Positions 20,840-58,700 of a DNA stretch of 64,000 nt are shown one piece after another. The notes under the pieces were generated by a model. It searched no databases, was not told the origin of the DNA, and saw only the letters and a list, made by a program, of their open reading frames with translations. The stretch is from Blastocladiella emersonii ATCC 22665 (Eukaryota > Fungi > Blastocladiomycota), in assembly GCA_025594325.1 (NCBI GenBank), contig JANHCV010000007.1, forward strand, positions 1,302,001 through 1,366,000. The letters run 5' to 3'. The stretch's first letter is position 1. Every line of letters begins with the position of its first letter. The translations under genes and the position numbers were made by a program.

Positions 20840-21487
20840 AGCAGCTCACATGGAGGTGCATTCGTGGAGCTATATTGGAGAGAGCGAACGCGGTGGGCGC
20901 CGCGCGACTTGGCCCGCATCACTTCGTCCAACACCAGTCCCCTTGACCGAGGTCGACGCATTCAATGCTCATGAATCAGGAGGAGCTCGGATTCTCATTA
21001 TCCCGCCCAAGGATCGGGCCTTGAGAGTGGGGCGCGAGGCCGCGCGGCTCCTCCCCGCTCAATCATCGCTCCGACCACATATTTTTCACATCCATGGGTG
21101 TCAGAATAAAGCCAGAAGCTTGTTGTACTCACGTATTGCCTTAGTTGTGAAGTTCATGTCGCGGGGAGTGAGGGCGGCGCCGCGAGGGCCCGCGCTCGAG
21201 CGGCTACCACAGGGCCGCGGCCTTCGATCAAGCCTAACTCCTCAGCGGCGCGGAATCAAGGTTTGTGACTGATACGAGCGTGTAGCCCTTGCAGAGACGC
21301 GTCGATTGATATGCATATAAAGCCGATCGGGTAAGGGGTGCGGGAGCAGGAGGTTTAGAGCGCAGATCGCTTCTGGGCCGAGCAAACTGCAACCAGACCG
21401 TACGAGAGACGCGCCGTGCAGGGCGCGGTCATGTGACTCCGGAAACGTGACCCCCACGCGACCGCTCTGGCCAGCTGGATCCGCACG

Positions 21488-21504
21488 GTCTGGCACCGAG
21501 ACTA
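21488..21504 (-). repeat. Right terminal inverted repeat
   Basis: GTCTGGCACCGAGACTA, the exact reverse complement of 14169-14185. Confidence 0.95.
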
Positions 21505-21513
21505 AGTTGCAGC
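21505..21513 (+). repeat. Right 9-bp target-site duplication AGTTGCAGC
   Basis: Identical to 14160-14168. Confidence 0.95.
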
Positions 21514-22064
21514 AGGGCTCGGCAGCACACGGTGCGCCACGTTTACTTGCAGCACCTCACACGTGTGGGTAGCTGGTTCAAGGTTCAAGAACCACGAAAT
21601 GTGTATACCGCCGAAAGGAATCATGATCATGAATGCACAAATCACAGGAAAAAGTCCACAAGCGTCGCAGGGGCCGCGAAACGGATCGCAGTTTGAGGGA
21701 GTGGGAGAATTCTCCCGCTGATTCCACAGTTGATGCCGCGAGTTGTGGCACGGAAAACCGAGCAATTTGTTAGCAAGAAGCACCGCGAGTTTGGTGCGTG
21801 GATGACAGTAAGATAAGTCAAGGCACACGCCCTGGAGTACGAAACACACGGATCGAGCGACGAACAGGACTCAACGCGTCAAGTTGCGACGCGTCCCCCG
21901 TGTAGCGCAACGCGTCTCCAACGAACCCTGACCTTCAAAGCGCAATCTCCACGCGCAGAACAAGTCTTGCCGTACGAGTTTAATGTCTCCCCGGAGATTC
22001 TGTGCGCAGCGTCTCTATTTGTTCAGGACTCTCACATCAAGGATTTGATCAAACTCAATTGTTA

Positions 22065-22634
22065 TTAAGCCGAACAGGCCAATCCTTGCAGCGGGATTGG
22101 TCCATCGAGCCGCTGCCCTTCCTGTGGGACTGGGACATGCGCCATGGCTGTGAGCGGGACCATTCCGATTGCGCCCGTGCGCGTATTCCGACACTGTGCC
22201 CACCAGTCAGTAAACACCTGAAGCAGCACAAACTCGGTGTTGGGGGAGAAAGTGAGCTCGTCGGGCAGATGTCGTGTGAAGTGTTGCATCGCCACCCACG
22301 TCGCGCCAGGGACTGCCGCTGAGGGTAGCGGGCGGTTCTGCGAGGGCAAAATCGAGACCTTCTCAGACTTGATGTGCATAATCGGCACGAATCCGACGGC
22401 GCCATTAACCATGTTTTGGCACCGTGCCCAACCGTCGGCGTGAAGCTCAAGCACGGCAACTTTGTCGTCGCACTTGACAGCCAGCTCGTCGTACGATTGC
22501 GGAACAAAGTCTTCCTTGGCGACCCTTACACTGAGCGCCACGACTGTTGAGGGCAGAGGCCAGACGTTTCGCAAGTACGGAGTGAATGTCGAGGTCGGGA
22601 GAGAGTCCGTTGACGGAATCGGCGTGGACGGCAA
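22065..22634 (-). CDS. Tandem SH3-domain protein (last exon; probably extends to an acceptor near 22677 and has upstream exons)
   Basis: Two SH3 signatures: VAKEDFVPQSYDELAVKCDDKVAVLELHADGWARC...GFVP and VAMQHFTRHLPDELTF...DWWAQC...GMVP. Confidence 0.75.
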   Translation of the reverse strand: MPSTPIPSTDSLPTSTFTPYLRNVWPLPSTVVALSVRVAKEDFVPQSYDELAVKCDDKVAVLELHADGWARCQNMVNGAVGFVPIMHIKSEKVSILPSQNRPLPSAAVPGATWVAMQHFTRHLPDELTFSPNTEFVLLQVFTDWWAQCRNTRTGAIGMVPLTAMAHVPVPQEGQRLDGPIPLQGLACSA

Positions 22635-22977
22635 TTTGCAAAGTGGGCAGACAGCGAATATTTGGGGAAGAGTCGGCTACGGCGGACGAGCAAAAGGCTT
22701 TTATCGCATTCGCAGTCAATGAGTGCGCACAGTAGGTCGGACGTCAGGAAACGTGCATGTGTCCTGTATATCGTGCACTTCACATGTTATCACCGCGCGT
22801 CTCGCATCGCGTCTCGCCCCCGCCAAGCACGCAGGGCATGCTTTCAACATGCGATTCCATGATGCTCAGCAGAAATGACTCGCATGCGCAGCGCGTGACG
22901 ACGCGGAAATCAAATATATATGTAACGGCGGCGAGCCCAGAAATCCGCGCCGGTCAGAACACTCTTCCTTCCACTGC

Positions 22978-24276
22978 TCAGCAATGTCGCGCACGAATCC
23001 GCGCAGCGAACTCGTGCTCATTGCGAGCAAGCGCCGTGTCAAGGATGGCACTCCACCTCTTTTGAGCGACGAGTCCACAAGATTCGAGCAGCTCGAGGTG
23101 CTCAATGTGAAGATCGCCGCCAAACCATCGCTTGATCAGAAACCCGAGCTGATTTAACTCGTAGCTTGTGTACCCACCTCCCCAGCGGTGGAGCCGAATG
23201 TCCTTAAAGACATCATCGAAATCGAGAACGGGCACGACCTGATCGGGAAACTGCGAGAGTAGTGGCATAAAAGCTTTGTGTCCCACGAGCGCAGCCGCGT
23301 GGACGTATCGCTTGCACAGTCTGGCCGACATGTTTGGATGGTGCGAGAAAGCCCACTCGAAGATGCCCTTGGCGCTCTCGGCCATGTCGATGAACGTCGA
23401 ATACTCTGTGGCGCGTTGAAGAGCCAGAGTTGCTGTCGTGTCGTCGCTCAAGAGTTTCGCAAGCACCGTTTCATCGACGCCGTACTGAGGATTGCTGCAC
23501 AGAATCCGGAAGATCGCGCCACGCCACTCCAAGATTACATAGAAGGCGAGCAGCTCGACGAATCGCAGGGGCGCCTCGGGAACGATGGTGCCCTCGTGCT
23601 CGGAACCCAGGTTGTACAGATGGTTGAAGAGCGGGAGCCACTCGGCAGGCGTTAGTGAGACAAGTAAAAGCTGCCGAGCCTGAACGGCGACGACGTCGAG
23701 AAGTTGACACAGGGCGTCCGACCAGCACCCAAGGACGGCGGCGACAAGCAGCCAGGCAAGCGTGGAGAGCGGACACGTCCAGATTGACGTGTACTGCTGA
23801 GACCGAGCTGCTTCCACCCGTTCGCGGAGGGCCTGCGCGTTGATATCGCTTGGTCGAATGCGACGAGATAATAGTTTGACCACGTTTACAAGAGCCGTCG
23901 TCGGTGCCGGCCTGCGATAGTAGCGCATCCGGGCAGACATGGCCGCTTTCTCCGCCCCTGCAGGGTTTAGGTCCACCCAAAGGAGACGCGTGACGGCATC
24001 CAGATCTCGAGTATTCGCGCGCGTTGAGCGAGGAACAGTCGCAATCAGCCGCTCGACAAGGACAAGGGACCAGGAAATGCAGACTTCTTCGTGGAGATCC
24101 AAGACATGCAGTGAGGCCGAGCAAGCCGCGACGGCTGCGCGCGGCGAAGCGAGTCGAAGCACGGCGCTAACCAATTCCGCGGGGAGCCGAGCGATCGCGC
24201 GGCTGTATGCATCATCTTCATCCCGTTGCATCAAGTGTTTGTGTTCCATGGTGGCGTTGGTGGCGATAACTTGCAT
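22978..24276 (-). CDS. Orphan 432-aa helical protein with an F-box-like N-terminal motif
   Basis: Long uninterrupted ORF. IARLPAELVSAVLRLA resembles the F-box L..LP.E consensus. No other family was recognised. Confidence 0.55.
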   Translation of the reverse strand: MQVIATNATMEHKHLMQRDEDDAYSRAIARLPAELVSAVLRLASPRAAVAACSASLHVLDLHEEVCISWSLVLVERLIATVPRSTRANTRDLDAVTRLLWVDLNPAGAEKAAMSARMRYYRRPAPTTALVNVVKLLSRRIRPSDINAQALRERVEAARSQQYTSIWTCPLSTLAWLLVAAVLGCWSDALCQLLDVVAVQARQLLLVSLTPAEWLPLFNHLYNLGSEHEGTIVPEAPLRFVELLAFYVILEWRGAIFRILCSNPQYGVDETVLAKLLSDDTTATLALQRATEYSTFIDMAESAKGIFEWAFSHHPNMSARLCKRYVHAAALVGHKAFMPLLSQFPDQVVPVLDFDDVFKDIRLHRWGGGYTSYELNQLGFLIKRWFGGDLHIEHLELLESCGLVAQKRWSAILDTALARNEHEFAARIRARHC

Positions 24277-32407: not shown

Positions 32408-35400
32408 ATGGCCGATCCGCTGTTCGACCCGAACGCCAATCTGCCGTCCGACGACGACATTATCGGGCCCATCAACTGGGATGACGAGTTCACGGGCGAC
32501 GCCACGGCCAACCTGCCGCCGGCCGTGGTCCTGGTCCTGCAGATCCTCTTCTACGCCATGCTGGCCTTCATCCTGCTCTACCTCGTCTCGCACTGGATCT
32601 TCCACTCGTGGTCCTTTGTCAACATCTACCGCATGGGTGACGCCAAGCGAAAGGCCGTCAACGCCTCGTGGAGCGACAAGGCCACGCCCGCCCTCGTCGT
32701 CGTCATGTTCACCCTCTACACGCTCTACATGGGCTCGTTCGTCTACGGTACGCTTCCCGCCCTTGGCGATCACCGTCACGGCGTGTGTGCTCGCCGTCAC
32801 GTCGTCGTGGGTGGTCTGCCGGCCACCGCGTCGCCGCGGCCGACCCGGATCGCTTCGCTCACCACCTCCGCACCCCCCTCGTAGTTACTGTCATCATGCT
32901 ACAGTTTCAAAAGTACACATCTAGCTTTATCAAAATCACCTCGCGCCGAACCCGCAACAACCTCAGCACTCTGCTGTGGTTGTTCTTCGCAATGGCGCTC
33001 TTCCCCGGTTCGTAGCCTTAGTACAGGCGTCGCAGTGCCACTGTCGCTAACGTCGTCGCCTCTACCTCTCTTACGCTTTCTAGTCATCGTCAACATGATC
33101 GCCGGTACGTTCGCGCCGTTGCTCCCATCGCTCCCGCGCGCTGTCCCTCCGCTCGCGTCGCTGCTCCCCTTCCTCCCGTCGATCCCGCTCGACACCTCCC
33201 CATTGCGCTCGCTGCTTCGCTCCTGTGCGCGACTCTCGTCGCTGTGCGCGCACACACAGCCGATCGCAACCGCCGCCACCGCCCCGTTGTTGTCGTTCGC
33301 CCGCTTCCATGGATGTTCCATCGCGAGCATCCTGGAACCGCCAGCCGCGCGCTCTCCGCCTCGCGAACCAATCATTTCTCGCGCCGCGAGTGTGATGTCG
33401 CGGGTCCTGCGGTGTCAACCCGGACCCGTTTCACCGCGGCACCGCGCGGCGCCCGATCGCCCTTGTTCCCGCTGCGCCCTGACGCCTCCCACTCACACCC
33501 GACGATCCCTGCCCATCCCATCGCTCTAGCCATCATCAAGCTGACCACCGACTGGCTGTACACGCGCAAGGTGCGCAACGACTTTACCGAGCGCAAGGAC
33601 GAGTTCCTGCGGTCGCAGGGCCTGCTTCCCGCCTCGGGCAGCTCGTCGTCCGCCACCGACCTCGCCCATGGGCCCGTCCACTCGCCCGCGGCCTCGCCCG
33701 ACGCCGCCGAGAAGGGCCTGCCGCTCGTCTACGTGCTGATCCCGACCTACAACGAGCCGCTGCCGAACCTCATGGGCGCCATCAACGGCGTCGCCGGGTC
33801 CGACTACCCGCGCCTGCGCGTCTACATCGGGTTCGACAACTACGACGTCGAGCAGCAGTTCTTCACCCTGTGCCGCCTCATGACGGGCGTCCCGCTCCGC
33901 TCCGAGACCCTCGCGCGCCGTGTCGCCGAGGACTCGGCCGCTCGCGCTGCTGCCGCCAACAACCAGGACTCGCCCGCGTTCGGCCCCATGTCCCCACCGA
34001 CGCCCGGGACCACGGCATCTGCCGCTGACCTCGCCGGCGGGTACAGCCCCAAGGTGCTGATGGGCCGCAAGTCGCAAAAGTACAACGGGTTCGACCAGAT
34101 CGTGACGGGCGGGACCGGCAGCATCCGCGGGTCCGTCGACCACCACCGCCGCGACTCGTTCTTCGCCGACCCCGGCGAGGCGGCCTCGGGCGACCTGGCG
34201 TCGCTCGGCGCCGCGCACCTGTACGAGGACGCGAGCACGTCGGGCGGCGGGTCGACGCCGTCGCTGCGGCTTCACGCCCCTCGCGGCCCGCAGCCGCTCG
34301 ACTTCACGGCCGAGGACTGTCCCGACGCGTACACGCTCGAGTACCGTTCGACGCAGATCACGGTGTGCCGGTTCGAGCACTCGGGCAAGCTGGGCACGCA
34401 GCGCAACATGTTCGAGCGGCTGCAGCAGGAGCTCGAGAACGAGGGCCACGTCGAGGACCCGTACATTCTGTTCATGGACTCGGACACGGCGATCATGCCC
34501 GACACGGTGTCGCAGCTCGTGGCCGAGGTGCAGCGGCGGCCGCAGACGCGCGCCGTCACGGGCATGGTGGTCAGCCGCAACGAGGACTGCTACAACTTCT
34601 GGCGCATCATGCAGGACGCCGAGTACATCGAGTCCATGATCTTCCGCAACGCCGAGGCCCTCATGGGCGCCGTAACGTGTCTCCCGGGTGTCCTGACCAT
34701 GTTCAAGTACCCGGTGCTGCTCGACGTTGCGCAGGACTACTTTTACCAGCGCGAGATCGCGTCGACGTTCGACTTTGCGCAGCGGTACCTGGGCGAGGAC
34801 CGGTACATGACGCACCTGCTGATGGAGCGGCCGGGCACGTACACGCTCGGGTTCAACTCGCAGGCCATGTGCAAGACCGAGGCGCCCAGCAACTTCAACA
34901 ACCTGCTGCGGCAGCGGCGGCGGTGGTTCCTGGGCACCATCACCAACGAGCTCATCATGCTGTGCACGCCGCTGTTCTGGCGCAAGTACCCGCTGCTGAT
35001 GCTGACCAAGTTCTTCCAGATCCTCAAGGTCGGCGGCGCCATCACCTACATCCTGCTGGTCGAGCTGCTCTTCAACCTCATCTTCGACTACTCGACGTTC
35101 AAGTGGGACTACCTCGTGTGGCTGCTCATCGTCATCATCCCGAACTGGCTCTTCGTCACCGTGTGGGCCGTGCTCGAGAAGCGGCTCAAGGCCGTCCTCG
35201 TCTTCCCCGCCTACTACTTCTTCAACCCCTTCTTCACCATCGCCATCCTCATGTACTCGTTCCTCACGGTCCGGCAACGTACCTGGGGCGGCCCGCGCGC
35301 TGCTGCCGCGACGGGCGACGACGACGAGGACGCGGCGGGCGACGAGGACGACGTGGGCGCGATCCGCCGCGACGGCGCGCCGCTCGAGACCGTGGTCGTT

Positions 35401-35442
35401 GTCGAGGACCCGCAGATCGCGCCGGCTGCCGACGGCCGGTAG
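32408..35442 (+). CDS. CHS: Chitin synthase (GT2) with N-terminal TM segments, no myosin or cytochrome-b5 domain seen; 3 introns in the 5' part
   Basis: LIPTYNE, GFD, GK, FMDSDT, QDAEY, TCLPG, GEDRYMT and LLRQRRRW motifs, followed by C-terminal TM helices. Confidence 0.9.
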
Positions 35443-36055: not shown

Positions 36056-36805
36056 ATGACCAACGCCTCGCTCGCGCTCCTCCTCGCCCTCGTCGCGTGC
36101 CTCGCGGCGTCGGCCACGGCCTTCGACATGCCCAAACCGACGGCGTTCATCAAGCTCGACAAGACGATCACGGTCAAGTCGGGCGAGGTGTTTGACGGCA
36201 AGGGCGCGCAGTTCGACTTCCGCGCCCCCGGCGCGTGCAAGGGCCAGAAGGAGACGTCGTCGGGCATGCTGTTCCAGGTGCTCCCCGGCGGCACGCTCAA
36301 GAACGCCATCATCGGGCCGAACCAGGCCGAGGGCGTGCACTGCGACCAGGGCGGGTGCACCATCCAGAATGTGTGGTGGGCCGACGTGTGCGAGGACGCG
36401 CTGTCGATCAAGGGCGAGAACAAGGCCGGGTCCCGCGTCATCGGGGGTGGCGCGACCGGCGCCCAGGACAAGGTGATTCAGCATAACGGCAAGGGGCACA
36501 TTCTGGTCGATGGTTTCCAGACGCTGAACGTCGGCAAGATGTACCGCAGCTGCGGGACGTGCGGCGCGGTCCAGCGGTCCGTGACGCTGCGCAACGTCAA
36601 GGCCGAGGGCAAGGCGCTGACGCTGGTCGGGATCAACCAGCAGAACAAGGACGTGGCCACGTTCGAGGGCTCCATCACGGTCGGCGCCGGCGTCAAGGAT
36701 ATCTGCGAGACCTTCACGCGCGAGGGCAAGAAGGAGCCCAAGAAGGTGTCGACGGGGCCCGGGTTCGGGTGCAACTTTACCGCGTCGCAGGTCAAACGCG
36801 TCTAG
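36056..36805 (+). CDS. Secreted pectate lyase, polysaccharide lyase family 3, intronless
   Basis: Signal peptide MTNASLALLLALVACLAASATA. PL3 motifs FDG, LKNAIIGPNQAEGVHC, NVWWADVCEDALSIK, DKVIQHNG, GKMYRSCGTC, LVGIN. Confidence 0.92.
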   Translation: MTNASLALLLALVACLAASATAFDMPKPTAFIKLDKTITVKSGEVFDGKGAQFDFRAPGACKGQKETSSGMLFQVLPGGTLKNAIIGPNQAEGVHCDQGGCTIQNVWWADVCEDALSIKGENKAGSRVIGGGATGAQDKVIQHNGKGHILVDGFQTLNVGKMYRSCGTCGAVQRSVTLRNVKAEGKALTLVGINQQNKDVATFEGSITVGAGVKDICETFTREGKKEPKKVSTGPGFGCNFTASQVKRV

Positions 36806-38154: not shown

Positions 38155-40180
38155 TCACGAGGTCGGCTGAGCGAGGCAGTAGTAGTAGTACCACAAGATG
38201 AGGGCTGGATCGGCGGCCGCGGGCGCAGCGACAGGGCCCACGTCGTGCATCACGGTGTCGGTGTCGTGCTGCGCGAACGCCGCGCCATGGTGGTAGTCGG
38301 CGTCGGCGGCGGGCGGCGGGGAGCCGGTGCAGAGGTTGAGCGGGTCGTCGTCGCGCAGGCCGATCGTCGACTGCGTGGTGGCCATGGCGGAGCCCAAGGC
38401 GCCAGCGAAAGCCATGTCCGTGACGGGCGCCGCGGCCAGCGAGGTCACCGTGAACTCGGGCTGCGTCTGCGTGAGGTGGGTCGCGAAGGGCGAGACCGCG
38501 CTGGTGCCGTACACGTTGTTGTAGGACAGGAACTGGTCGAAGTAGGCGTTTTCGACGGCCATCTGCTTGCGGTCATGATGACCAATCGTAGCGCCCGAGT
38601 CGTCGTCGCCGTGGCCGAGGTCCTGCTGCATCGCGTCGTTGTCAGTCGCGCCAGCAGAAGCCGACAGGAACACGTCCGGACCGCCCGCGCTCAAGAAAAG
38701 CGCGGGAGGCTCCGTCTGGGTCTGCGCGAGATGGACCGAGGTCGCGGGCCACCCGGTCGCGCCACCGACGCTGCTGTACGGGATGTGGCCGTCGTGGAGC
38801 GTGGTGGCGGGCGTGGCGGGCATCGGCATGACGGGCATCGGCATGGCGGGCATCGGCGCGACGGGCGTCGACATGACGGCGTGCATCGGCATGAAGGGCA
38901 TCGGCGCGATGGGCATCGGCGTGGTGGGCATCGGCATGACGGGCATCGGCGCGACGTGAGAAGCCCAAGCGTGCCCACGGCCGAGCTCAGCAGAAAGCGT
39001 GTGCGCCGCCAGCGCGTTGGTGGGCGCGGCGAGCATCGGCGACGAGTCGTAGGACACGGAAGCGTGACCATAGCCGAGCGAAGCCGGAGCCGAGGCCGTC
39101 GTTGGCGCGTACGCGTAGGCCGGCGCAGCGACAGGTGCGGGCGGCGCCGCCTCGGCGTCAGGGCGCGGCCCATCCATGGCCGGAGGCGCCTCGAGCGTGT
39201 CCAAGTCAGAATCGTCAAGAAGGGCGGCAACCTCGGCAGCCAGCTCGGGACCCAAATGCCCAGCGCGATGGACAGCGGGGGCAGCGACGTGAGCAGCGGC
39301 CGGCGCGGGCATAGACCCGGACGCGGTTGCAGCCGCCGCGGCAGGCTCGGCCGGTGCGCCGGCGAACAGGGGCGCGACGTCCACGTCAAAGTCGACGAGG
39401 AACTTGGCCTTGGGCTCGCCGTTGAGGTGGTTGACGAAGCGACGCGCGAGCTGCTGCTCCGCGGGCTCCTGCATGGGCTCACCGGTCGCGACGGGCGGGT
39501 CGGCGGGCGGGTCGGCGGGCGGGCCGATGAGCGCGGTGATGCGCAAGCGCGCCGCCGGGTCGTTTCGCGCGAGAAGGCGGAAGTAGGCGAACTGGCAGCA
39601 CCACTGCGCGTAGACGTGACGCCAGTGGTGATGAATGTCCTCCGCGCTACGGGTGAGCGGGCAGCAGGTCAGTCTATTGTGCGGGGAGGAGAGCGCGCAA
39701 GAAGTACACGTACTGGCCCGAGTGGTAAAATGTGCCACACGGCCTGTTGTCCAAAAGAAAGAACTGGCCGGGGCAGCGGAACTGGTACTTAAACACCACG
39801 TGCTTGACGAGGTGCGTGCGGATGGCCGTGATGATCTCGGAGGTGCTGCGCGCGAGCTTCTCCTCGCGCTGGTGGCAGAGGGGGCAGGTGAAGTCCACAA
39901 TGTCGTGCTCGCCGCACCACTGGTCGTCGTGTTCCACCTGCGGGCCCTTCTGCTTGAACCGGCCGCTGGCTACGCCCGCGCGGTACTCCTCGAGCGTGAA
40001 CGACTGGCGCCGGTAGAAGACTTTTGGGTCGGCGAGGAAGCCATCGAGCACGGCGTCGTCGGGCGTGAACTTGAGCTTCTCGGCGGCCCTTGAGCCGAGG
40101 CGGGCGCAGACCTCGTCGACGTATTCGCGGGTCACGTCGTCCTGGGCGAACTGGATGAAGTCGAGGGGCGGCTCGGCCAT
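38155..40180 (-). CDS. Atypical two-finger C2H2-like protein A with low-complexity acidic/Pro/Met tail (intron 39647-39713)
   Basis: Finger 1 CPLC-x20-HLVKH. After splicing (phase-2 GTACGT..GTAG), finger 2 reads CPG-x9-C...HHHWRH. Paralogous to 40661-42028. Confidence 0.72.
38818..38955 (-). repeat. About 9 copies of a 15-bp coding unit (GGGCATCGGCnnnnn on +) encoding PMPxx pentapeptides
   Basis: Directly visible periodicity. Translation APMPVMPMPTTPMPIAPMPFMPM. Confidence 0.85.
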
Positions 40181-40660: not shown

Positions 40661-42028
40661 TCACCAGCGCGACGCGACGAGCGCCAGCGGGTCGTCGAAC
40701 GGGCCCGCGACGCCGCCAAAGTTGATGAGCTCGTCCATCGTGACCGGATCGTGCACGGACGACGGCACGCCACCAAGGTCGAGGGCGGGCGCGCTCACGC
40801 CCATGGCGGGCAGCGGCGGCATCTCGAGCGGGGTTGCGGGAGCGAACGAGGCGATGAGCGCGTCGAGATCGAGCTCGAGCTCAAAGTCGAACGACTGCTG
40901 CGTCGCGCCCGTGTTGAAGCCGCCGGCGTACGCGAACGGCGGGAGAAGGCCCATGCCGAGATCCATGGCCGCGAAGTCGGGCGCGAAGCCCATGCCGCCG
41001 AACTCGGGCTGCGTCTGCACGAGGTCCGGCGCCGCGAAGCTCGCCTCGGCCGCGGACGGCGAGATCACGTCCCACACCGGGTCCGCGAGGAGCGCGTCGA
41101 CCTCGGCCATTACGGACGGCGCCTCGGACGCGGCGCGCGGGATCGCGTCGACGGCGGGGTTGCGCATGGGCGCCTCGACCGGGAGGTCGGCGCACGCAGC
41201 CGGCGCGGTGGCGAACAGGTGCGCGACGTCCACGTCAAAGTCGATGTGGTGCTTGGTCTTTGGGTCGTTGTTGAGGCAGTCGGCAAAGTGGCGCGCGAGC
41301 TGCGCCGCGGGCATGGCCTCGAGCTCGGGGATGGTGCCCGTCGAGCCGCGCGTGACGATGCGCTCAATGACGCGCGTGCGCACGGCCACGTCGTGCTCGG
41401 CGAGCGCCTTGAAGTAGGACAGGATGCAGTTGTGCTGGCGCAGGACGTGGTACCAGTGGTGGCGGATACCGTCCGAGCTACGATGGGGTGAACAGTACAA
41501 CCGTCAGTTCGCCGTCGAGCACGAACGCGATCGAAGGGCAACGTACTCGTTGGTGTGCAGCAGGGTAGCGCACCGCTTCCCGTCGACGGGGTGCGTCTTG
41601 CCGGGGCAGCAGAACATGTTGGCGAAGAGGCCGTGGGTGCCGATGTGGGCGCGGACGGCGGCTCGAGCCTCGGACGGCGCGCTGCGCTTGCGCACAAACT
41701 GCACGACGGCCGCGGCGCACACGGGGCACTGGAACCGCAGCGTGTAGCGCAGCGCGCACCACGCGGCGTCGCGCTGCTCCTTCCGGGCCTTCTGCTTGAC
41801 CTGGTCCGACCGCGCCTCGGCCAGCGTCGTCGGCGTCAGCGCGTAGTCGACCTTGGGCGACGCGAGGAAGGCGTCGACGAGCGGCAGCGCCGGGTTGCAC
41901 TTGAGCTTGGCCTTGACCTGCGCCGCCGACAGGATCAGGCTGAGCGCGTCGACGTGCGCGCGCGTCACGTCGCCCGCGTTGAACTTGACCGTCTCGCGGA
42001 TCGACTGCTGCTGCTTCTTCTGCGACAT
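40661..42028 (-). CDS. Atypical two-finger C2H2-like protein B, tandem paralogue of gene A (intron 41478-41546)
   Basis: Finger 1 CPVC-x23-HIGTH and finger 2 CPG-x9-C...RHHWYH. Same intron position and phase as gene A. Shared DVTR, FLA.PKV, QLAR.F...L..(D/E)PK.K..DFDVDVA.LF and QTQPEF motifs. Confidence 0.72.
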
Positions 42029-42370: not shown

Positions 42371-44931
42371 TCACCCCGCGACCGCCGCCGCCGCGAGCGT
42401 CGCCGTGACAAACGGCTGGCGCAGGGTCTCGAGCGGGGGCATCGCCGCGCCGCCGTCGCTAAGTACGGCCGCGATCGCCTCGCTGTCCTCGTCCGCTGCC
42501 GCCGTAGCCGCCCACTGCGCGATCCGCGCGCGGCCCTGTGCCCCGCCGAGCGCGTGGACCAGCTCGCACAGCAGCGCGACGTGGTGCGACTTGGCCGACG
42601 GGAACATGGACTCGACCATGAGCTGCACCGTGAACGCCGCGTCGAGCCCGGGCTGCGGCACCGCGTCGGCCCGCGCGAGCTTGTCGAAGAGCGCCGTCGG
42701 CCCGCCGAGGACTGTCGCGATGAAGCTTGCGGCCGTGTGTACCGCGCGAACGACGAGACGCTCGGCGTGGTCGGCGGCGGCGGACGGCGAGTCGAGGCTG
42801 GTGAGCGTCGGGCACGCGCAGTGGTCAATGTCGAGGCGGCCGTCGGGGTACACCTAGTCGAGTCGTGCGCGGGTTAGCGATTTGCCTTCTCACGCAGAGC
42901 GAGTGAGTGCACCATGACGGACTCGATCCCGATCGCCTCGGGCGGCACCGCAAACGCGGCCAGCGCCTCGGCGAGCGCGAGCACCGCGCGCGTCACGTAC
43001 AGGAACGCGTCGTCGACGGCCTGCTCCGGCACGTGGCCCGCCGCGTACACGCGCGCGATCTCGGCGAGCGACTGCGCGCCGGTCCGCGGCGGCTGCAGGA
43101 CGGCGATCGGCTGGCCGTGCTTCGCATGGTGCACGGGATCGTCGAGCCAGACACCCGCCACGGGGAGGACGCGGAGCAGGCGCGCGAGCGAGGCAGACGG
43201 CGATGCCGCGCGGTGTTGGTGCGACCGGCGCCACACCACGGCGTGCCCGTCGAGCGCCGCCGCGAGCTCGGGCGACGACGCGCGAAGCCCGGTGGCCGTG
43301 TGCCGGCATGCCACCGTCGGCTTGGTGGTCAGCGGCGTGCCAGCGGACGCGACCAGGACCGTGAGGCGCGCGGGGTCGAGCGTCGGCGGGAACCAGTGCG
43401 ACGTGCTCGCCACGTACGACTGGTGCGCGATCACGACGGGGAGGCCGTGCTCGGCCGCGAGGTGCAGCCACGGGGCCAGCGTGTCGCCGTGCGACAGGAA
43501 TGACGGTGAGACCGTGCGCGGGGCCGCGGCGGCGAGCTGGTTGAGCGACCCGACGCCCGAGTCGATGCGGTGCACGGCGGCGGCCGACGTCGACCGCTTG
43601 ATCTCGTCCTCCCACGCGTCGGAGACGGCAAAGACCGAGCTCGGCGACGCGAGGCCGCTCATGTCCTGGCGGTACCGCTGTTGCTGCGGGAACGACTGTT
43701 GAACTGGCTGCTGCTGCTGCTGCACGGGCGCCGGCGGCAGTGCGCGCCCGGGCTGCGCGGGCTGGCCTTGAGACAGGACGGCGGCCGCCGAGAGCGGGTG
43801 GAGGAAGCGGGTGTGCTGGGCGAGGAACTTGATGGTATCTTCGGCGCCGCACATGACCGAGTCGACGCCGCCCTTGAACGTGAGCTCGGGCCCGAGCTCG
43901 ACGGGGGCGGCCGAGGGCGTGGCGAACTCGATGCCCGCGGCGTCGAGGACGACGTAGTCGGGGACCGGGTTGATGATGAACTCGTAGAACACGGCGCCGC
44001 GGTACAGCTCGTGGGTCGACCCGTTGTACTGGAGGCGCGGGAGGTACATGATGCTGGACCGCACCAGATCGCGATGGGTGGGCGGGAACCGGCGCGCGTC
44101 GTTCTTGCCGGGGCGCTCGTCGATGGCACAGTACACGTTGGACAGGTCCTGCTGCAGCTTGGTCCCGGCGACCCGCCGTTTCTGCGACCCGAGCATGCGC
44201 AGGCCGTTGTACCCGCTGTCGACGATGCGCGACCAGTCGCGCTGGTCGTTGGCGCACGGCGCCGACGCCTCGATGTCGCCGTACCGCGTGCGCAGGCTGT
44301 GCAGGATGCGCGCGTGGATGAACCGCGCCGCCGCCGCGTTGACGACCAGCCCAAAGAAGTTGATGTGCTGGTTGTCGCGGTCACCGCGCTTCATGGCCGC
44401 CACCGACTGCGCGCGCAGGGCGTCGCGCGGCGCGTTGGGCGGCAGCGCGCTCCACACGGCGTTGCGGACAAGCCGACGCAGCTCGGCCGGGTGCGGGCGC
44501 AGGTGCTCGTCGTTGAAATCGATATCGATGTGGAAGTGGAACTTGGCGTGCGGGTCGCGCGTGTCGATGCGCTCGCACAGGTCCACAATGTCGTACGCGA
44601 GCCCCGGGTCAATGGACTCGCCCGCGGCGGCGGCGTCGAGCGCTGCCGCGTCGCTGCTGCTGCTCGGGGTCCCCGACCGGCCCGCCGCCAGGATCGCCGC
44701 CTTGCGGTAAAAGTCGGCGAGGTCGCGCAAAAAGTCGGTGTCGTAGGTGCACAGGTCCGCGTACACCTTGCCGCCGTGCAGCCCGTTGAGCGACGTGTGC
44801 GTGATGGGCCGGTCCGGGTCGTCGATGCGGCACACGCGCGCAATGAACCGCGGCGGCCGCTTCGGCGGCGCCCTGGTCGTCGTCGCGGGCAGCGGGTTGG
44901 GTTGCATCAGGTCGGTCATCGTTGATTCCAT
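42371..44931 (-). CDS. Archaeo-eukaryotic primase/polymerase (NCLDV C962R/D5-N-like AEP) fused to a C-terminal pseudokinase-like domain; 2 exons (intron 42854-42912), about 830 aa
   Basis: AEP motifs: THTSLNGLHGGK, CE, motif I FHIDIDF, motif II QHINF.GLVV, motif III DWSRIVDSGYNGLRMLGSQK. After a Q-rich linker come kinase-like elements: VACRHTATG, GQPIAVLQP...SLAEI...PEQAV, spliced ESVMVYPDGRLDID. Intron GTGCAC..GCTAAC..ACTAG is in frame. Confidence 0.75.
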
Positions 44932-47424: not shown

Positions 47425-48705
47425 ATGATATCAACCACCGCATTCCCGCTCGCTCCATCGACCGCGCCGGCCGCGACCGCCGAGCCGCAATGGATCAGCA
47501 CGGCCGAGTCGTCGGCGTGGCTCACGGGCCCTGAGCTCGCGTCACCGCCAACCCGCAACGCAACGTCTGGCGGAAGCAACCCGAACCTGCCCAACCCGCG
47601 CCCATTGCCCGTGCGGCCCCCGCTCCCGTCGTCGCCTGTGTTGCCGCAGATCAACGGGACTCCGGCGACGTCGCGGTCGCTCGCCCCGACGTCAACGCCG
47701 CAGGGGATCATCCGGCTCAACACACACACGCTGTCGGGACGCACGCTCGCGGACTTCTTTGGCGCGGGCGACGACGATGGAACTCCGCCGCGGCTCCCGA
47801 CGACCCGGCCAGCGTCGCCGCCCGTGGGCCTCGCGGTGACGGTGCCCGGGACCGCTGCGCCGATCGCGGTCACGCACATCCTGACGCCGAGCAAACCCAC
47901 CAGCCGCCCAACCCCCTCCACGGGCACCTCCGCGCCATCGACCCTCGTGCAACCGCCGCGCGAGTGCCTGCAATGGCTGCGCTCGCTCAACCTGACGACG
48001 CCCGTGACGCCCGCGACGCTGGCGAACGGGTACCTGGTCGCGGAGATCTTCAGCCGGTACTTTCCCGCGGCGTCGGCGACGCGCGGGCTGCACTACCGGC
48101 GGCGGGCCGATGAGTCCGAGGACGTGGACGGGTTCTCGCTGTACCGGTTCCAGAACGGGTGCGGGACCGCGTGCAAGGCGCGCAACTGGGCGCAGCTGCG
48201 GCGGTTCCTCGAGCGGCGGCTCGCGCTCGACCTCGCGCCGTCGGTCGTCGCGCTCGTGAGTAGCGGGCACCGGCCGCTCGCGTGGGCGGTCGTCGCGGAG
48301 TGCTGGGAGGCCTTGACGGGCAAGGGGTACGGCGGTTCGCGGACCCAGCAAGATCGTGATGATTGACCTCGCCGAACGTGTAGCCCGCGCCGCCCCGTCG
48401 CGCCGCTCTCAACTTTTCCGGTCGCGGACCCGCACCACCTGCCGACGAACCTGTCCGACTCGAAGTCCGCGACGACGGCCGTGTTCGCGCACACGCTCCT
48501 CCCGTCGCCGACCCCGCAGTCGCGGTCGCGGTCCGGCAGGGGCAGCAAGACGTACGCGCTGCCGACGGCCGCCAGCACGCTGCACACGATCCCGCAGGCG
48601 CTGCTCGACCAGGCGCGTGACGCGGGCGCGCTGCACGGCGACGTCGCGCGGCTCGCCGACGCGTACACGCGGTCGGTCGCGCGGATCGTGCATGGGCGCA
48701 AGTGA
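47425..48705 (+). CDS. SPATA4: SPATA4/Spef1-like calponin-homology flagellar protein (intron 48327-48383)
   Basis: LQWLRSLNL...LANGYLVAEIFSRYFP...FQNG.G...KARNWAQLRRFL matches the SPATA4/Spef1 CH-like domain. The 57-nt intron joins to ORF 48481-48705 in frame. Confidence 0.7.
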
Positions 48706-48731
48706 GGAGGTAATATATATCGACCAGAAAA

Positions 48732-51191
48732 TCAGTTCCACGCCTTCCACGTCCCATCGCTCGCGGCGGTCGCGAGGTACTCGCCCTGGACGTGGTCGAA
48801 CGCGCACGCCTGGACCGCATCGCGGTGGCCCGGCAGATCACGGCGGGCGGACACTGAGTTGTCGCGCAAGTTCCACAACTTGACGGACCCGTCGTTACTC
48901 GCCGCCGCGACAACGTGGCCCGCGAGGTCGAGCGCGACCGAGTTGACGGGGTGCGGTCCGAGATCCAGCGACGCGAGCGGGGCGCCCGACGGTCCGCCTG
49001 CGGCGCGCGGATCCCACAGCTTGACGATCCCGTCGGCGTCGCACGTCGCGAACGTGTCGCCCGCGGGCGCAAAGGCGATGGCGTTGACCGCGTTGGTGTG
49101 CCCGAAACACGTCTGCACAGCGTGCCCCGCGCGCGCGTCCCACCCGCTCACGGACTTGTCGCCCGACGCCGTGTACAGCGTGTTGGTGTACGGCTGCCAC
49201 GCGACCGCGTTCACCGAGTCGGCGTGCCGGCGGAAGGTCTGGCGGCACTTCCCACTACACACGACGTGGGGTTAGCGGTCGACGGCTGCGATGAGGGGGT
49301 CAGAATGAGACGTACGTCGTGAGATCCCACACCTTGGCCGTGTGGTCCATGGACCCGGACGCGAGGAACGCGCCCGTGTCGTGGAACCGGCACGCCCAGA
49401 CCGCCTGCGTATGGTCGCGCAGCGTCAGCGACGCCTGCGCGCGGCCAAAGTCCCACACTTTCACGGTCATGTCGCCCGACGCCGTGGCCATATGTGCGCC
49501 CCTACGGTGGTCTGGTGTCAGAGAGGACAAGGTGGAGGGTTAAGAGTGACGGTACGTACTTGGGATGGAAGTCGACGTCCGCGATCCAGTCCGTGTGCCC
49601 GTCGCCCGTCATGAGCAGCTCACCCGTCGGCAGGTTCCACAGCTTCCACGCGTGGTCGTCCGAGACGGTCGCGAGCACGAGTTTGCGCGGGTGGAACGCG
49701 ATTCTACACGAAAGCCGTCAGTCCACCGACCTCCTCCGTCGAGCACCGAGGAAACATACGCGCTGATCGCCATGTCGTGGGCCTTGACCGTGAGCACCTC
49801 GCGGAGCCCCGCGACACGCACGGGCTGCATCGAGCGCGCGGTGCCGCTCTCGACGAGCGGGTTGGGCCGGTCCTCGGCCGGGAACTCGGCGCCACCTGCC
49901 CCGACCATGCCGTTGGCGGACGCGGTGCTCGAGGCCGCGGGGAGACGCGTCTTGGACGCCGGGACGCGTTTCTTGGCGGGTGCCGTCGCGGTGGGCGGGG
50001 ACGGCGCGTCGGTGCGGCGTGCGCCGGGCGACGGGGCCCTGGTCCGCGGAGGCGGAGCGGACGGCTCGGACGAGGCGCGCGCCAGGGACCGCGGTGGCGG
50101 GGATGCCGTCTCAGGAGCGGTGGTGCCGACGGCGGGCCCCGCGGCGCGCGCGCCGCGCAGCTCGGTCGCCATCTGGTGCACGCGGGCGGCGAGCTTATCG
50201 CGCTCGAGCTTTAGGACGGCGCGGTCCTTGAGCGCGGCGTCGAGCTTGGCGGACGCAGCCTGGAGCCCCGCGTTCGCCTCGTCCGCGCACTTGGCGTGCC
50301 GCCGCGCGTCGGCGACGAGCCGGTTCTTCTCCTGCGAGGTGCGCGTGTAGTGGAGCTTGAAGAAGTCGCGCTCTTTTTTCGCGCGGTCGAGGTGGTCGCG
50401 CAGGCGGTCGGCGAGCGTGCGCATCGCGGCTAGGTCGCGCCGCAGCACGCGGATCGTGTCCTCGAGCTTGGCCGTGTGCGCGTACGCGTCGGGGATGGGG
50501 AGTGCGTCCTCGGGCGCCAGCCGGCCCGCGTGCAGCTGCTCATACCACTCGGTCTCGAACGACTCGAGCGTCAGGTGCATCCCCTTGGACGCGAGGTAGT
50601 TGCGCACGAAGTCGTCGACGACCTCGGGGCGGTGGGTCAGTGTCGGCTGGAGTTGTGGTGCGGCGGACGCGGCGTCGGGTGAGGATGAGGGGTCGGAGGG
50701 TCGTTCGGCAAACTCTACGAGTCGAGCGCAGGTGAGCGGAGTCGACGGGTCCGGAGTGTGAGCGAGGGCGTACTAGCAACGAGACTGCGCTGCTGGATCC
50801 GGCGCACGGCCTCGTCGAGGTCCTCGTTATCGACGCCCACGTCAGCATCCCCGTCCGGGTCGTCGGTGCCGAGCGCGAGCCACGGGTCGTTGAGGGCGAG
50901 GTTACCGAGACTCAGCTTGGCGAGATCGAAATCGTCGTCGTCGTCATCCTCATCGAGGCGCCGTTCCGTCACGTCAGCCGCGTCCAGCGTCGGCGCGTGC
51001 GGGTGGTGGAGTCCAGCAGCGAGCGCCGTGGCCGCGGACACGGAGGCACGGCGGGTAGTGCCGGGTGGCGCAGCCGTGGCGGGGTCAGCGGATGCAGGGG
51101 TGCCGACCGAGACGTGCGATCCGGCGGCGGCGGACGCGGTTGGAATCGGGAGGCCCGAGGCCGAGGCCACGGCCGGCAGCGTCGAGGCCAT
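48732..51191 (-). CDS. SPAG16: Sperm-associated antigen 16 / PF20 axonemal central-apparatus WD40 protein, about 4 introns
   Basis: RPEVVDDFVRNYLASKGMHLTLESFETEWYE, coiled coil (AKKERDFFKLHYTRTSQEKNRL), then seven WD repeats ending in WKAWN. Confidence 0.88.
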
Positions 51192-52785: not shown

Positions 52786-55700
52786 ATGTCGGGCGCCCCG
52801 CCAGCCTCCTCGGCCGCCTCAGCCGCCCCCGCTGTCGCCGCCGCCCCAGTGGCGCCGCCGCCGCTGTCGGGACCCAGCGCCTCGGGCTCGTCCCGTAAGC
52901 GCACGCGAACGCACGAGGGCATGCAGCTGCGCCTCGACGCGCACCCGCACGCGCACGGCGGCTCGGTCGCGGCCGCCTTTGCCCCGCACGTCGCCAACTC
53001 GTTCCGCAGCGTCGCCCTCGCCGACCCCGCCCTGCTCTCGCCCACCACCGTCATCCACCCGCTCGGCCCAGCCGGCGACGGCACGGGTCCCGCCCTCGGC
53101 CACCCGGACCACCTCGCCTCGGCCCTCCCCTCGCTCCTCTGCGACTCTCTGCACCTCGACTCGCCCATCTCCACCTTGTCCCCGCCCGTCGGCCTCAGGC
53201 CCGCCGACGCCGCGGCCCAGTTGCCGCTCGAGCAGACCCACCACCAGTGCGCCGAGCAGCACCACCTCGCCGCTGCTGCCGCTGCCGCTGCGGCCGCTGC
53301 GGCCGCCCAGATCAAGCCGGCCGACCGTGCCCGCATCCAGCAGCAGCACGATGATGCCGCCAGTCTCCTCAACCGCAGCGGGTCGCCGCAGACCGTCACC
53401 CCGCGCCGCACCCCGCCCAACGGGCCCGCCGAGGCCATGCCCTCGTCGCTCTCGCACTCGCTGCCCGCCGCCGCGCACCACCCGCTGCCCGTCAGGCTCT
53501 CCCAGGAGGACCTGACGCCGCCCGGATCCGCGCCGTCCTCGGACATGGCGGCTGCCGTCGCCGCGGCAACCGCCGCGGGGCTCTACTCGCCCACCTCGGC
53601 GCCCTCGCAGCCCAACCAGCAGCCCCAGCCGCAGCCGTGGTTCGATTTTCTCCTCGAGGAGAACATTTTGGATGCGGACGACACGGACCGGTCCGTCTCG
53701 GGCACCCCCGCCAGCGCGACGGGTGCGCGCCCGCGCTGGACCCGCCGCCCGTCCGAGGCTACCACCACGGTCCCGTACCCGGCCGTCACCTCGGCTGCGA
53801 CCTCGATGGCAGCGCTGGCCGCACACCAGCACCTCGCCCAGAACGACGCGCGCGCCGACGCGGCCGCGGCTGCCGCCCGGTCCGCCGCCACGATCATGGG
53901 CCCGCCCAAGGCCGCGCCCGCGTCGGCTGACCCGTACGCCGCCGCTGCCGCTGCCGCCGCCGCTGCAGGCCTCCCCGAGCACCTCGTCGAGCTCGCCGAG
54001 TACAAGTCGCCCAACCCGACGCTCAAGAAGAAGCCCCGGTCGCTCGCCGTCTCGCTCGACCTCGCTGGCGCCGTCCCGCCGCCGCCCGCCATGCACCGCG
54101 CCGCCACGCTGCCCGCCGAATTGCCCCTCGGCATGGTTGTCTCCGCCGGCGGGGCATCCGACGTCGCTGCGTACCGCGCCCACCACCACCACCATCACCA
54201 CGCGGGCTTCCTCGGCAACCCGGCCTCGTTCCTGACCCCCGAGGCGTCCCCGTTCCGCCAGGGCGGCGACGCCAACCCGTTCCTCTTCGACGTGTCGCTC
54301 ATCAACCCGTCGCCCGCCTCGTCGCCCTACGTGTTCCAGGCCCGCCGAGTCGACTCGGCCATGCTGCACATGGGCGTGACCACCGCGACCTCGGCGGCCG
54401 CTGCCCAAACGTACAACACGCCGCCGCACACGGTGATCCCCGGCGGGCAGTACCACCACCACCAGCAACAGCAGCAGCATGCGTACCAGCAGCAGCAGCA
54501 CGAGAATGGGAACGGCGGTAGTGCCGAGCCCATGGACCAGGACGCGCAGCAGCAGTCGCAGCACGCGCAGCAGCAGCACAATGGTGGCGGCGGTGCCGAC
54601 CAGGGCGGCTACGACGCCGAGCAGTACCAGCACCACCACCAACACCAGCAGCAGCAACAGCAGCAGCGCCGCTCGTCCGTGTACTCGAACGGTGGCGCCG
54701 AGCACGGCTACGCCCAGCAGCAGCAGCAGCAGCAGTACCAGCAGCAGTACGACAACCAGGCGCGCCAGTCGTCGCAGCAGACCGAGGAGTCGTTCGCTGC
54801 CGCGCTGTCCGAGTACCACAACCAGGTCGCTGCCGCTGCCGCCGCCGCTGCTGCCGCCGCGTCCGCCCACGCGGGCTCGGACTCGCACAACGCGCCGCGC
54901 ACCGCGTCGCCCGCGTCGTCGTCCGGCTCGTCGATGCACGTCATGAGCTCGGGCCCCGAGCCCACGGCCGCCACCACGCTCGCGTCGTCCTCGGGCGTCT
55001 CTCCTACGGGCTCGTTCGCGACCGAGCAGCAGCAGCAGCAGCAGCAGCAGCCGTTGCTCCTGTTTGGCGGCCGCTCGAACCTCCCGACCTCGTCGTCCGC
55101 GGCCGGCTCGTTCGCCGGCACCGCGTCGTCTCTGGTCCAGTCGCCCGCGTCATCGTCGTCCCTCCTCGCGGCGCAGCAGCAGCAGCACCACTACCACCAG
55201 CACCACCACGCTGCGCTGCACCACCACGCGGCCGCCATGGGCCTCGAGCCCATGTCCCCGAACACGGCGTCCGTCGTCGCCGCCGCGGACGCGCTCATGG
55301 GCCTTCTCCCTGCGTCCATGACCGTCGGGTACACGGACACCCTCGCGGGCGGCGTCGGCGGTCCGCTGCATCTCGGCGGGCCCGGCGCCGCGGGGTTTTT
55401 CGTGGATCTCACGGCCGACCTGCACGCCATGTACCAGCCTGCCCACGGGCACGCCGGGCACACGCACGCCGCCTCGGCGCTCCCGCTCCCGCCGCCCCCG
55501 CCCGCGGTCTCGGCGTCGGCCCTCCCGCCCCCGCCGCCTGCGCCCGCCGCGTCGCAGTCGTATTCGGGTGACGTCCACGATGGGCGCCGCGGGTCGGTCC
55601 ACCACCAGCACCACCCGCACCACCACGATGCCGGGTACTGGGCGCAGCAGTCGTCGTCAGGCCCCGCGACCAGCCAGTCGTACGCGGCCAACGACCACCA

Positions 55701-58700
55701 GTCCTCGGCCTCGGCCCTCGGTCTCGTCATGCGCCACGCCTCAGTCTCGCCGCAGAACCTGTCCCTGACCCCGCCGCTCGTCTACGCGCCCGGTAATCCC
55801 AACGGCGGCGGGTCGGTCGGCTCGCCCGTGCACGAGTTCTTTGACGCGGCGGCAGCCGCCGCGGCGCTGCATGAGCGCGCGCAGTTCGAGCACCACGCGC
55901 AGCACGCGCACCACCACCATCACCACCAGCAGCCGCACCCGCTGTCCCAGGTCTCGGACGCGCACGACCTCGCGTACACGGCCGACCGCGGGCTCATGGC
56001 GGCTGCAGCTGCTGCTGCGGCCGCGGCGGCCGCGGCGTCGGTTCCGGCTGCTGCGGCGAGTGGGACCCCGACGTCGTCGGCCTCATCGCTGAGCGAGCCG
56101 GCGGGCACGTCGCCCATGATCGAGGACGCGGCAACGTTCAGCAATGGTAACGGCAGCGCCACCACTAGTGCGCCGGCGCCCGCGCCTACCTCGACCTCGA
56201 CAGCGGTCACGGCCCCGCGGCGACAGCGGCGGCAGCAGCAGCAGCAGCAGCAACAGCCGCAGCCGGCCCCCGCGCCGCCCGTCCCGACGCTGTTCCGGTT
56301 CCCGAACCCGGCCTCGGCCCATACCCCCGCGGCGCCGGCCATCCTCACGGACGCGCAGCTGCAGCTCGTCCTCGACGCGATGCTCACGTCGTGCCACGCG
56401 CAGGGCCCGTGCCACCCGCTCGGGTGCTGGCACATGTACGTGCGCGGGTTCGCGGCGTCGCAGGGCGTGCTCCCGAAGGACGCCGAGACCGAGCCCGAGC
56501 GGTGGCTCGGCCGGTGGGGGATGACCAAGGTCTCGGTGTACACGCCCAAGGTCGCCCAGAAGTCGTACGGGTCCGAGAAGCGGTTCCTCTGCCCGCCGCC
56601 CATGATCTCGGTCGTCGGTAACCCGCTCCTCGCCGCCACCGCGCTCGCCAACCCGCTCGCCCTCCCGCCGTCGCCCGACCCGCGTGTGCCTGGGTGGGTC
56701 GCCGTCACGCCCGAGCACGGGCTGCCCGTTATCTCCATGGCGATGCAGGGCGAGACCACGCACAGTGACGGGGCCGCGATCACGGTTGCGCCGGCTGCAC
56801 CGGCTGCGGCTGCTTCGGCCGCGGGCGACGTCGACAGCGAGGACGGCACCGTCGCCGAGCGCGCCGTGTCCGCGGTCCGCGGAGAGCGGATCCATCTCAG
56901 CGAGAACGGCTGGCGCGCCGCTGGCACCCACGCCAGCTCGGCCAGCGCGTTCGGGTCCACCGACGCGGCCTCGTCGTCGACGTCGTCGCGCTCGCGCCGC
57001 GCACGCACCGTGTCCATGTCGTCGGCCTCGTCGGGCCGCAGCGTCTCCGCCAACCCCTCAGCCGCCGCTGCCGCTTCTGCTGCGGCGGGCGTCCCCGCAC
57101 TCGCGACCGACGAGCCCGAACCCACGCTGCACGTCGACAAGTTCTGCGCCGAGAACGCGTGCGGCGAGTTGCCCGCGGAGCGGTGGTCGTTCAAGAACAT
57201 GTGGGTCAGCGACTCGGAGCGCAAAAAGTCGTTCAACTGCTCGTTCCGCATCGCGCCCCCACCCGCGGCGACCGCGGATGCCGGCGAAGCCGCGGCCGCG
57301 GCTATCCCGCCCGTCCTCGCCGAGTTTTTGTCGAAGCCGATCCGCGTCATCTCGAAGCCCAGCAAGAAGAAGGTGACGACCGCCAACTCGACGCTCGTCC
57401 AGCCCGCGGCCGTCGCCGGCGCTATCCACTCGGGCACCACCATCTGCCTGTTCAACCGCATCCGGTCGCAGACGGTGTCGACCAAGTACCTCACGATCGG
57501 GTCGTCGATGCCCGTCCCCGCCTCGGTTCTCCCCGCCGACATGGCGCAGGCGTCCGAGTCGGGCAAGCCGCCGCGCGGCGGTGGGACCTCGTCGCTCGAC
57601 CAGGCGCGGATCGCCGCCAACGGCAACGTCGTCCGCCACGTGTTCCCCGGCGCGACCACTAGCGAGCAGGTCAAGTTCCTCTCGTCGACGGCCGCGTGGA
57701 CCAGTTTCTTGATCGAGGTCATTGACGAGTTCGAGCGCACCTCCGCGTACGTCGACCTGCCCCGGTACGACTGCCGGTGCGGGTCGTGCAACGCGTCGCG
57801 CCAGTACCACGAGGCCGTCACCGCGGCGCTCGCGGCCGAGGCGGCCGCGCAGAGCGCGGGGAATGCCGCGACCGCGCTCACCCGCCCGCACATGCCCCCG
57901 CCGTCGCAGTGCCCGTCGCGCGGACGCATCCTGTACTACAACCAGACGGTCGTGCTCGTCGACCCCGTCACGGGCCTCCGGTCGCGCCCGCTCACCATGC
58001 GCAAAATGGACCGCACCACCATGGCCGTCCTCGGCGAGGGCACGCTCGTCCCGCAGCCCGTCGCGTCGCAGCACCTCGACCCCGCGACCGCGGCGGCGGC
58101 AGTGGCCGCGTCTGCGGCAGCGACAGCCGCGGCTGTCGCGCGCGCCCGGTTCCCGCTCGGCGCCGCCGCCGCCAGCCAGCAGTTCACCCCCGGCCAGCGG
58201 CTCCGCCCGCTGCCCAACCACCCGTGGGTCCTCCACTGCAACACGCAGGCTGGGCTCCGCGCCGCGCAGGACCCGCAGGCGGCGTATGTCGCGAGCCAGA
58301 CCGCGTCGCTTATCCATGGAACTAGCAGCGTCGGGTCCCACCACCACCACCATCACCAGCAGCACGCTGCGCACCCGCACGCGCATGCCCACCCGCACCA
58401 CCTCCAGGCGGCGGCAGCAGCGGCGGCCGCGGTCCAGCACCTGCAGCAGCAGCAGCAGCAGCAGCAGCATGCGGCGGCCGCTGCGCTCGCGTCGTCGGCG
58501 CTCGCGTCGGCGGGGTACGGGTCGTCGCCCGCGAACGCACCGTCTGCGCCGCTGACGGGTTCGGCGGGTCAGCCGACGTCGTCGGCGGCACCCACCATGG
58601 CCAAGCAGGACGCCATGTCGCAGCTGCACAAGGTGGCGTTCCAGCTCGCCGACTCGGACGAGTACCCGGGCGCGTTCGTCGCGCTCATCGACAACCACGT

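Follow-up and report, generated by a model that had tools for sequence, protein, structure and literature searches.

A C962R-like primase-polymerase domain joined to a predicted pseudokinase in Blastocladiella emersonii and other Blastocladiales

The window analysed here is a stretch of 64,000 nucleotides from Blastocladiella emersonii, whose minus strand carries H9P43_006383, a two-exon gene with a joined frame of 833 amino acids and a single stop. Exon 1 (42913..44931, minus strand) comprises 673 codons and exon 2 (42371..42853, minus strand) 160 codons and a TGA. They are separated by a 59-nt, phase-0 GT-AG intron with a GCTAAC branch site (42854..42912, minus strand), which follows the pattern GTGCAC...GCTAAC...CTAG from 42912 to 42854 and falls within what would be kinase strand beta-7. 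The NCBI model (KAI9176019.1, 829 aa) begins at Met5 (44919) and has an identical splice. None of 14 alternative GT-AG pairings around the junction was preferred over the 59-nt intron, which is backed by the orthologue alignment. GC3 is 0.94 in exon 1 and 0.92 in exon 2. A preliminary description of the locus had proposed a two-exon reading frame of about 830 aa with host-like GC3 and a 59-nt intron, encoding a primase-polymerase (AEP) joined to a degenerate kinase fold; this gene structure is confirmed, and the motifs quoted there are all present where expected in the 833-aa frame.

The fusion gene occurs once within the 64-kb window. Its GC content, 0.71 across the gene, is the same as that of the flanks, and its neighbours are of host type (LRR, WD40, CH_2, pectate lyase and chitin synthase-like genes), with no effector-like gene recognised among them. 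The neighbouring WD40 gene holds a comparable 61-nt intron-like element. The host-like GC and host-type neighbours argue that the fusion gene is not a recent viral insert; an endogenous giant-virus element was considered and rejected on these grounds and on the presence of the intron.

Several other features of the window were recorded. Directly downstream of the fusion gene is a tandem duplicated pair of reading frames (39364-40162 and 40664-42028, minus strand; 34% and 40% identical), the smaller frame of which has a zinc-finger-like Cys/His pattern and no Pfam match at E 0.01. The plus strand encodes a chitin synthase-like glycosyltransferase (33313-35439) and a pectate lyase (36056-36805, E 4e-64), and the region 47425-50772 contains a CH_2 sperm-protein-like gene (plus strand) and a coiled-coil and WD40 gene (minus strand), the latter presumably resembling flagellar PF20/SPAG16. 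A single-frame ORF of 2611 aa (52786-60618, plus strand), in which LAG1-DNAbind, BTD and TIG_SUH matches lie far apart, is predicted to be an unusually long CSL-type transcription factor. A block of lower GC at 4000-24000 (0.57-0.66, versus 0.66-0.74 elsewhere), which contains DEAD and Helicase_C frames (14407-17352) and a DUF6589 match (18653-19492), is possibly a mobile element.

By sequence, the N-terminal half of H9P43_006383 is a C962R-like AEP domain whose catalytic motifs are intact. The domain spans 43930..44860 (minus strand, as are all features of the gene; approximately aa 25-334) and contains motif I, FHIDIDF (44515..44535; D136, D138), motif II, NQHINF (44356..44373; H189), and motif III, WSRIVD (D238) followed by GLRMLGSQK (44179..44235), which was aligned to viral AEPs. 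Residues D136, D138, H189, D238 and K251 (D132, D134, H185, D234 and K247 in the 829-aa numbering) are invariant in 8/8 aligned homologues, and the first four correspond to D97, D99, H157 and D200 of C962R (PMC10516667). A conserved helix behind the AEP core (43804..43836) is also present in P0011, a short homologue of 247 aa. PF23162 (AEP_C962R) is the sole AEP family matched in Pfam. The window protein scores 17.3-18.9 bits against it, under the Pfam cut-off of 23, while P0011, at 45.5 bits with nearly the full model covered, is the one alignment member of eight that passes. In hhalign, the family profile matched two viral AEP sets, standalone and D5-type, at 98.7% each (E about 2e-16), and in the Atlas the Allomyces AEP domain joins AEP_C962R clusters that are mostly viral (features 0.97, structure TM 0.60). 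AEP folds are absent from the lists of structure searches with the full-length model, which is too poor (pLDDT 37) for this absence to count. The hhalign, Atlas and P0011 results bear out the assignment of a C962R-like AEP to the N-terminus, and the invariance of the metal-binding residues agrees with the earlier impression that all three catalytic motifs are intact.

To define the distribution of the family, we searched 1.84 billion representative proteins with a profile of five homologues (E up to 0.001), which matched 6 representatives. With cluster members, the family comprises Blastocladiella, Allomyces macrogynus, A. arbusculus, A. javanicus, Coelomomyces lativittatus, P0005 and P0011; the family records listed all carry the names hypothetical or uncharacterized. 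The full-length fusion (825-829 aa) is found in five species, Blastocladiella, the three Allomyces and Coelomomyces lativittatus (826 aa), and all three genera belong to the Blastocladiales in the NCBI taxonomy. A second, shorter copy of the fusion gene in A. macrogynus (P0009, AMAG_03635) has an internal deletion; it retains the catalytic Asp and His residues, and Cys replaces the Arg of GLRM. A weak search among 573 candidates gave no longer relatives of P0011. Scans with short exact motifs produced 154 and 8 pattern matches in viral contigs, 98 in metagenome contigs and 5 in prokaryote genomes, and no relative was confirmed among them; the lone match in another metagenome motif scan was an off-frame chance match in a retroelement-like ORF. 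The survey suggested in the preliminary description has thus placed the fusion in three zoosporic genera and yielded no viral or prokaryotic copy.

The homologue records also bear on the age of the intron. All five truncated or intron-retaining records examined diverge or end at the intron codon, after the catalytic-loop-like segment: Val follows this codon in P0005, P0006, P0009 and P0012, and the partial model P0010 ends there. Five records breaking at the same codon point to a shared, old intron, whose position, judged from the proteins alone, is apparently common to Blastocladiella, Allomyces, Coelomomyces and P0005.

AEPs of this kind are known from several viral systems. ASFV C962R and the NCLDV D5-like primase-helicases belong to the same AEP family and have the same catalytic D-x-D, H and D. 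In them PF23162 is combined with PriCT_2, D5_N and an SF3 helicase, whereas the fungal fusion has no match to any of these three modules and is a cellular, intron-bearing gene with a kinase-like C-terminal half. PriCT_2, D5_N and SF3 helicase were absent from Pfam searches of the family, and P0003, P0004 and P0005 had no Pfam family at all up to E 1; viral controls do show D5_N and DUF5906. Similarly, Herpes_UL52 had no match in 8 family members but did match the control L234, a standalone NCLDV AEP. We take L234 and L238 to be A468R-like. In PMC4538821 this name denotes standalone NCLDV AEPs that carry a zinc finger of the UL52 type. When the family profile was compared with the sample of viral AEPs, its best single matches were standalone AEPs (L234, 30 bits), and they have DFxD and NGLRM in common with the fungal proteins. 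Within the aligned standalone group, seven proteins from viral contigs (L237, L244, L245, L248, L249, L263 and L264) are 535-775 aa long, and in the first five of these, the ones scanned, an AEP_C962R domain is accompanied by a long remainder that has no Pfam match.

The AEP tree contained 27 rows, of which 21 were motif-selected viral AEPs and none a eukaryotic PrimPol; 5 rows that were weak or partial had been removed before this first tree was built, and the second was computed without 9 viral rows and P0007. The fungal family forms a single clade (100/99) on a long branch, within which Blastocladiella and Allomyces are grouped as in the NCBI taxonomy (97/86 in the first tree, 78/77 in the second). 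In tests of the donor class neither grouping was rejected (p-AU 0.25 and 0.43), and support for the D5 grouping was 54/39. Hence, of the link to D5-like/C962R proteins that had been put forward, membership of the AEP family stands, as does the absence of the PriCT/helicase module that usually lies behind such AEPs; a closer kinship to D5 primase-helicases than to standalone viral AEPs does not. The phylogeny that had been proposed recovers one clade and is compatible with either D5-type or standalone viral AEPs as the source. We infer that an ancestor of the Blastocladiales acquired the AEP from a large DNA virus or a related element; a tree that contains no PrimPol does not, however, separate such an origin from descent from the host's PrimPol. 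The host-like GC3, the intron, the host-type neighbours and the single clade make it likely that the gene has been domesticated. Allomyces genomes contain giant-virus islands, and a D5 gene inside one is described as a primase-helicase among viral genes (PMC5294986); it does not appear to be the fusion gene.

The two halves of the protein are joined by a Q/P/S/A-rich linker (43480..43800), which the preliminary description had noted and which is unconserved in length and sequence. It is followed by a conserved helix-strand element of the type WL..A....LP..I (43429..43470) and then by the predicted pseudokinase (42374..43190), in which we recognised alphaC/beta4/beta5-like elements, a C-lobe and a degenerate catalytic loop that spans the splice. 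A protein-kinase match in Pfam or HHpred had been expected; the C-terminal half has no kinase match in Pfam or PDB sequence searches. The latter gave nothing for queries P0001 or A4, and two neuroglobin rows for query A5 (E 1.5) were taken as chance.

Structural comparison was more informative. With the AlphaFold model of the full-length Blastocladiella protein (pLDDT 37), Foldseek listed a kinase among its four best rows, with E-values no better than 0.27, and VIA returned only mixed helical bundles. When the Coelomomyces C-terminal domain was modelled alone (pLDDT 43), kinase folds made up 42/42 of the Foldseek matches listed (best E 0.015) and the best 50/50 rows of a VIA search against a clustered library of 48,161 chains. 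The best VIA row for this low-confidence model had Z 9.3 (9.8 in a second look), rmsd 4.2 and 144 aligned residues, just above the Z of 7-8 that is reported as common. These matches cover model residues 133-313, that is, the C-lobe only; residues 47-133, the N-lobe region, have pLDDT under 50, and no Lys or Glu column there is conserved among the three genera. Against viral structures, 34 of the best 50 Foldseek rows were named kinases (best E 0.013). No Foldseek match to either the Coelomomyces or the Blastocladiella model reaches E 0.001. The proposed structural check thus gave kinase folds for the Coelomomyces domain, from poor models.

We also compared a five-row alignment of the C-terminal half with sets of 50 PI3K-like and 62 ePK-like viral kinases, chosen by motif after the kinase idea had been formed. 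In hhalign the alignment landed on the catalytic loop of both sets, with scores of 30.3 and 22.6, respectively, versus maxima of 27.3 and 19.5 over 40 block shuffles; the Blastocladiella sequence alone gave no kinase signal. The Allomyces protein leads to kinase-like families in the Atlas by both features and structures, which we treat as leads only. The Blastocladiella C-terminal half is homologous to those of Allomyces (z 6.5) and Coelomomyces (z 13.7), with no signal against the truncated P0005, and the fold call for Coelomomyces therefore carries over to Blastocladiella. No single test is significant; taken together, they make it very probable that the C-terminal half adopts a kinase fold. 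A leaning towards PI3K-like kinases is seen with Foldseek, with hhalign and in the Atlas features, while the top VIA rows are ePK-like and lanthipeptide kinases; PI3K/VPS34 chains head the Foldseek list and are missing from the best 50 VIA rows, which need not count against them. The earlier threading onto a kinase fold thus holds for the C-lobe (the region of subdomains V-XI, through the structural matches) and finds no support for subdomains I-II: VACRHTATG, which had been assigned to the latter, is unconserved and lies in the part that could not be modelled.

To read the catalytic positions, we counted in a fixed register starting at the beta7-beta8 turn. The Asp at the HRD position is Ala in Blastocladiella and is kept as [IV]GD in the three Allomyces, Coelomomyces and P0005. 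The catalytic-loop Asn is lost in 5/5 full-length proteins, where K, R, T or S stands instead, and RCR, RCD or HCA occupies the place of DFG, again in 5/5. The claim that both HRD and DFG are lost is therefore correct throughout for DFG, and for HRD in Blastocladiella only. These replacements support the prediction that the kinase-like half is a catalytically dead pseudokinase. A CxC replaces the end of DFG, and together with a later His it belongs to the 24 columns that are identical across the three genera; the CxC and this His might form a metal site.

We propose that the fusion is a domesticated virus-type, primer-extending DNA polymerase that is regulated or recruited by its predicted pseudokinase, a reading to which we give about an even chance. 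After capture of the AEP from a virus or related element by an ancestor of the Blastocladiales, the module that normally positions such an AEP on DNA, a helicase or a UL52 zinc finger, would have given way to a kinase domain. Having lost catalysis, this domain would now serve for docking or as an on/off switch. A dead kinase fold is coupled to a nucleic-acid enzyme in PAN3 and RNase L, and the module in the fusion could act in a similar manner. The AEP itself would add nucleotides by a two-metal mechanism, like the AEP domain of C962R; the isolated C962R domain extends primers using dNTPs (PMC10516667). The likeliest job of such a protein would be to fill gaps in host DNA or to reprime its synthesis.

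A less probable, though plausible, version of these events would have a giant-virus primase-polymerase turned against giant viruses. On the plan of RNase L, the pseudokinase would recognise infection by a viral protein or ligand and then activate nucleotide synthesis by the AEP, whose product would be an oligonucleotide signal or corrupted viral DNA; the protein would be a polymerase counterpart of RNase L, with the possible CxC-His metal site replacing the start of the activation loop. What makes this plausible is that giant viruses persistently infect Blastocladiomycota, according to PMC13533422. Moreover, divergence between genera is far faster in the C-terminal half than in the AEP (20-21% versus 54-59% identity), and the five best structural rows include the pseudokinases of PAN3 and RNase L (Z 8.4 and 8.2, about 9% identity), tied with other kinases. 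Within Allomyces, on the other hand, the C-terminal half is 92-94% identical, compared with 96-97% for the AEP, and the overall pattern fits a conserved enzyme plus a structural partner. A single copy in the window and 6 representatives in 1.84 billion give no sign of family expansion, and effector-like neighbours were not recognised. In PMC10516667, terminal transferase activity was not clearly seen for the C962R AEP, which also speaks against the antiviral reading.

It is doubtful that the AEP is instead a strongly diverged form of the PrimPol (CCDC111 type) native to the lineage, with a pseudokinase in place of the UL52-like zinc finger and no viral capture. Eukaryotic PrimPol resembles the fusion in being a cellular AEP that belongs to the NCLDV-herpes clade and has an accessory domain at its C-terminus, and it is present in some fungi (PMC5295015 and PMC4538821). 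One nearby Atlas cluster of the Allomyces AEP domain is 50% eukaryotic, but 3/4 of the clusters by features and the first nine of ten by structure are 80-100% viral, and AEP_C962R alone among AEP families was matched in Pfam. Motif I of the family is DxD, unlike the DxE of PrimPol. The accessory domains would also set the two apart, a UL52-like zinc finger in PrimPol and a predicted kinase-like domain in the fusion.

The remaining alternatives concern the C-terminal half and the gene itself. That this half is not kinase-derived, its matches reflecting a widespread arrangement of helices in models that are weak, is a little more doubtful still. The low pLDDT, the lack of a significant E-value or of a Pfam or PDB sequence match to kinases, and the N-lobe strands missing from the models would agree with it; against it, the best 50 VIA rows show one fold, unlike the mixed rows of the Blastocladiella full-length model, profile alignment independently finds the catalytic loop, with the [IV]GD Asp at the HRD position, and the Allomyces leads from the Atlas are kinase-like. 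It is very unlikely that most members have an active atypical kinase, acting on proteins, lipids or small molecules, and that the domain is dead solely in Blastocladiella: the retained HRD-position Asp of the orthologues and the higher loop score against PI3K-like than ePK-like viral kinases would be expected of one, but the Asn and DFG positions are replaced in every full-length protein and identity between genera is about 20%. A recent endogenous viral fragment, for which the Allomyces islands (PMC5294986) are a precedent, or a gene model joining two genes by mistake is scarcely credible, because the same fusion of 825-829 aa occurs in five species, a single exon covers the AEP together with the greater part of the kinase-like half, and GC and neighbours are host-like.

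The preferred reading of a regulated or recruited polymerase differs from the systems it recalls. The partner here is a polymerase, unlike in PAN3 and RNase L; no specific kinship to these is apparent, and ATP-binding residues are not evident in the fusion. The kinases of class III lanthipeptide synthetases (SalKC, CurKC, ThurKC), which provide the top C-lobe structural rows (Z 8.5-9.8, 9-13% identity), are active, bacterial and of different architecture, so that the likeness is one of fold alone. Both folds, and the control of nucleic-acid enzymes by pseudokinases, are already known; what would be new is their combination. The statement that no AEP-pseudokinase fusion had been described holds for the literature searched, in which we found none and which left out two key surveys.

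The usual partner of a viral-type AEP is a helicase module or a zinc finger. The narrow known range of the fusion limits the reach of the finding, but its host phylum is one that giant viruses infect, and Allomyces and Blastocladiella are culturable models, so that the repair and antiviral readings can both be tested. If the proposal is correct, the family would represent a separate eukaryotic domestication of viral-type AEPs, kept across a fungal order, and would extend control by a pseudokinase, already known for nucleases, to a polymerase.
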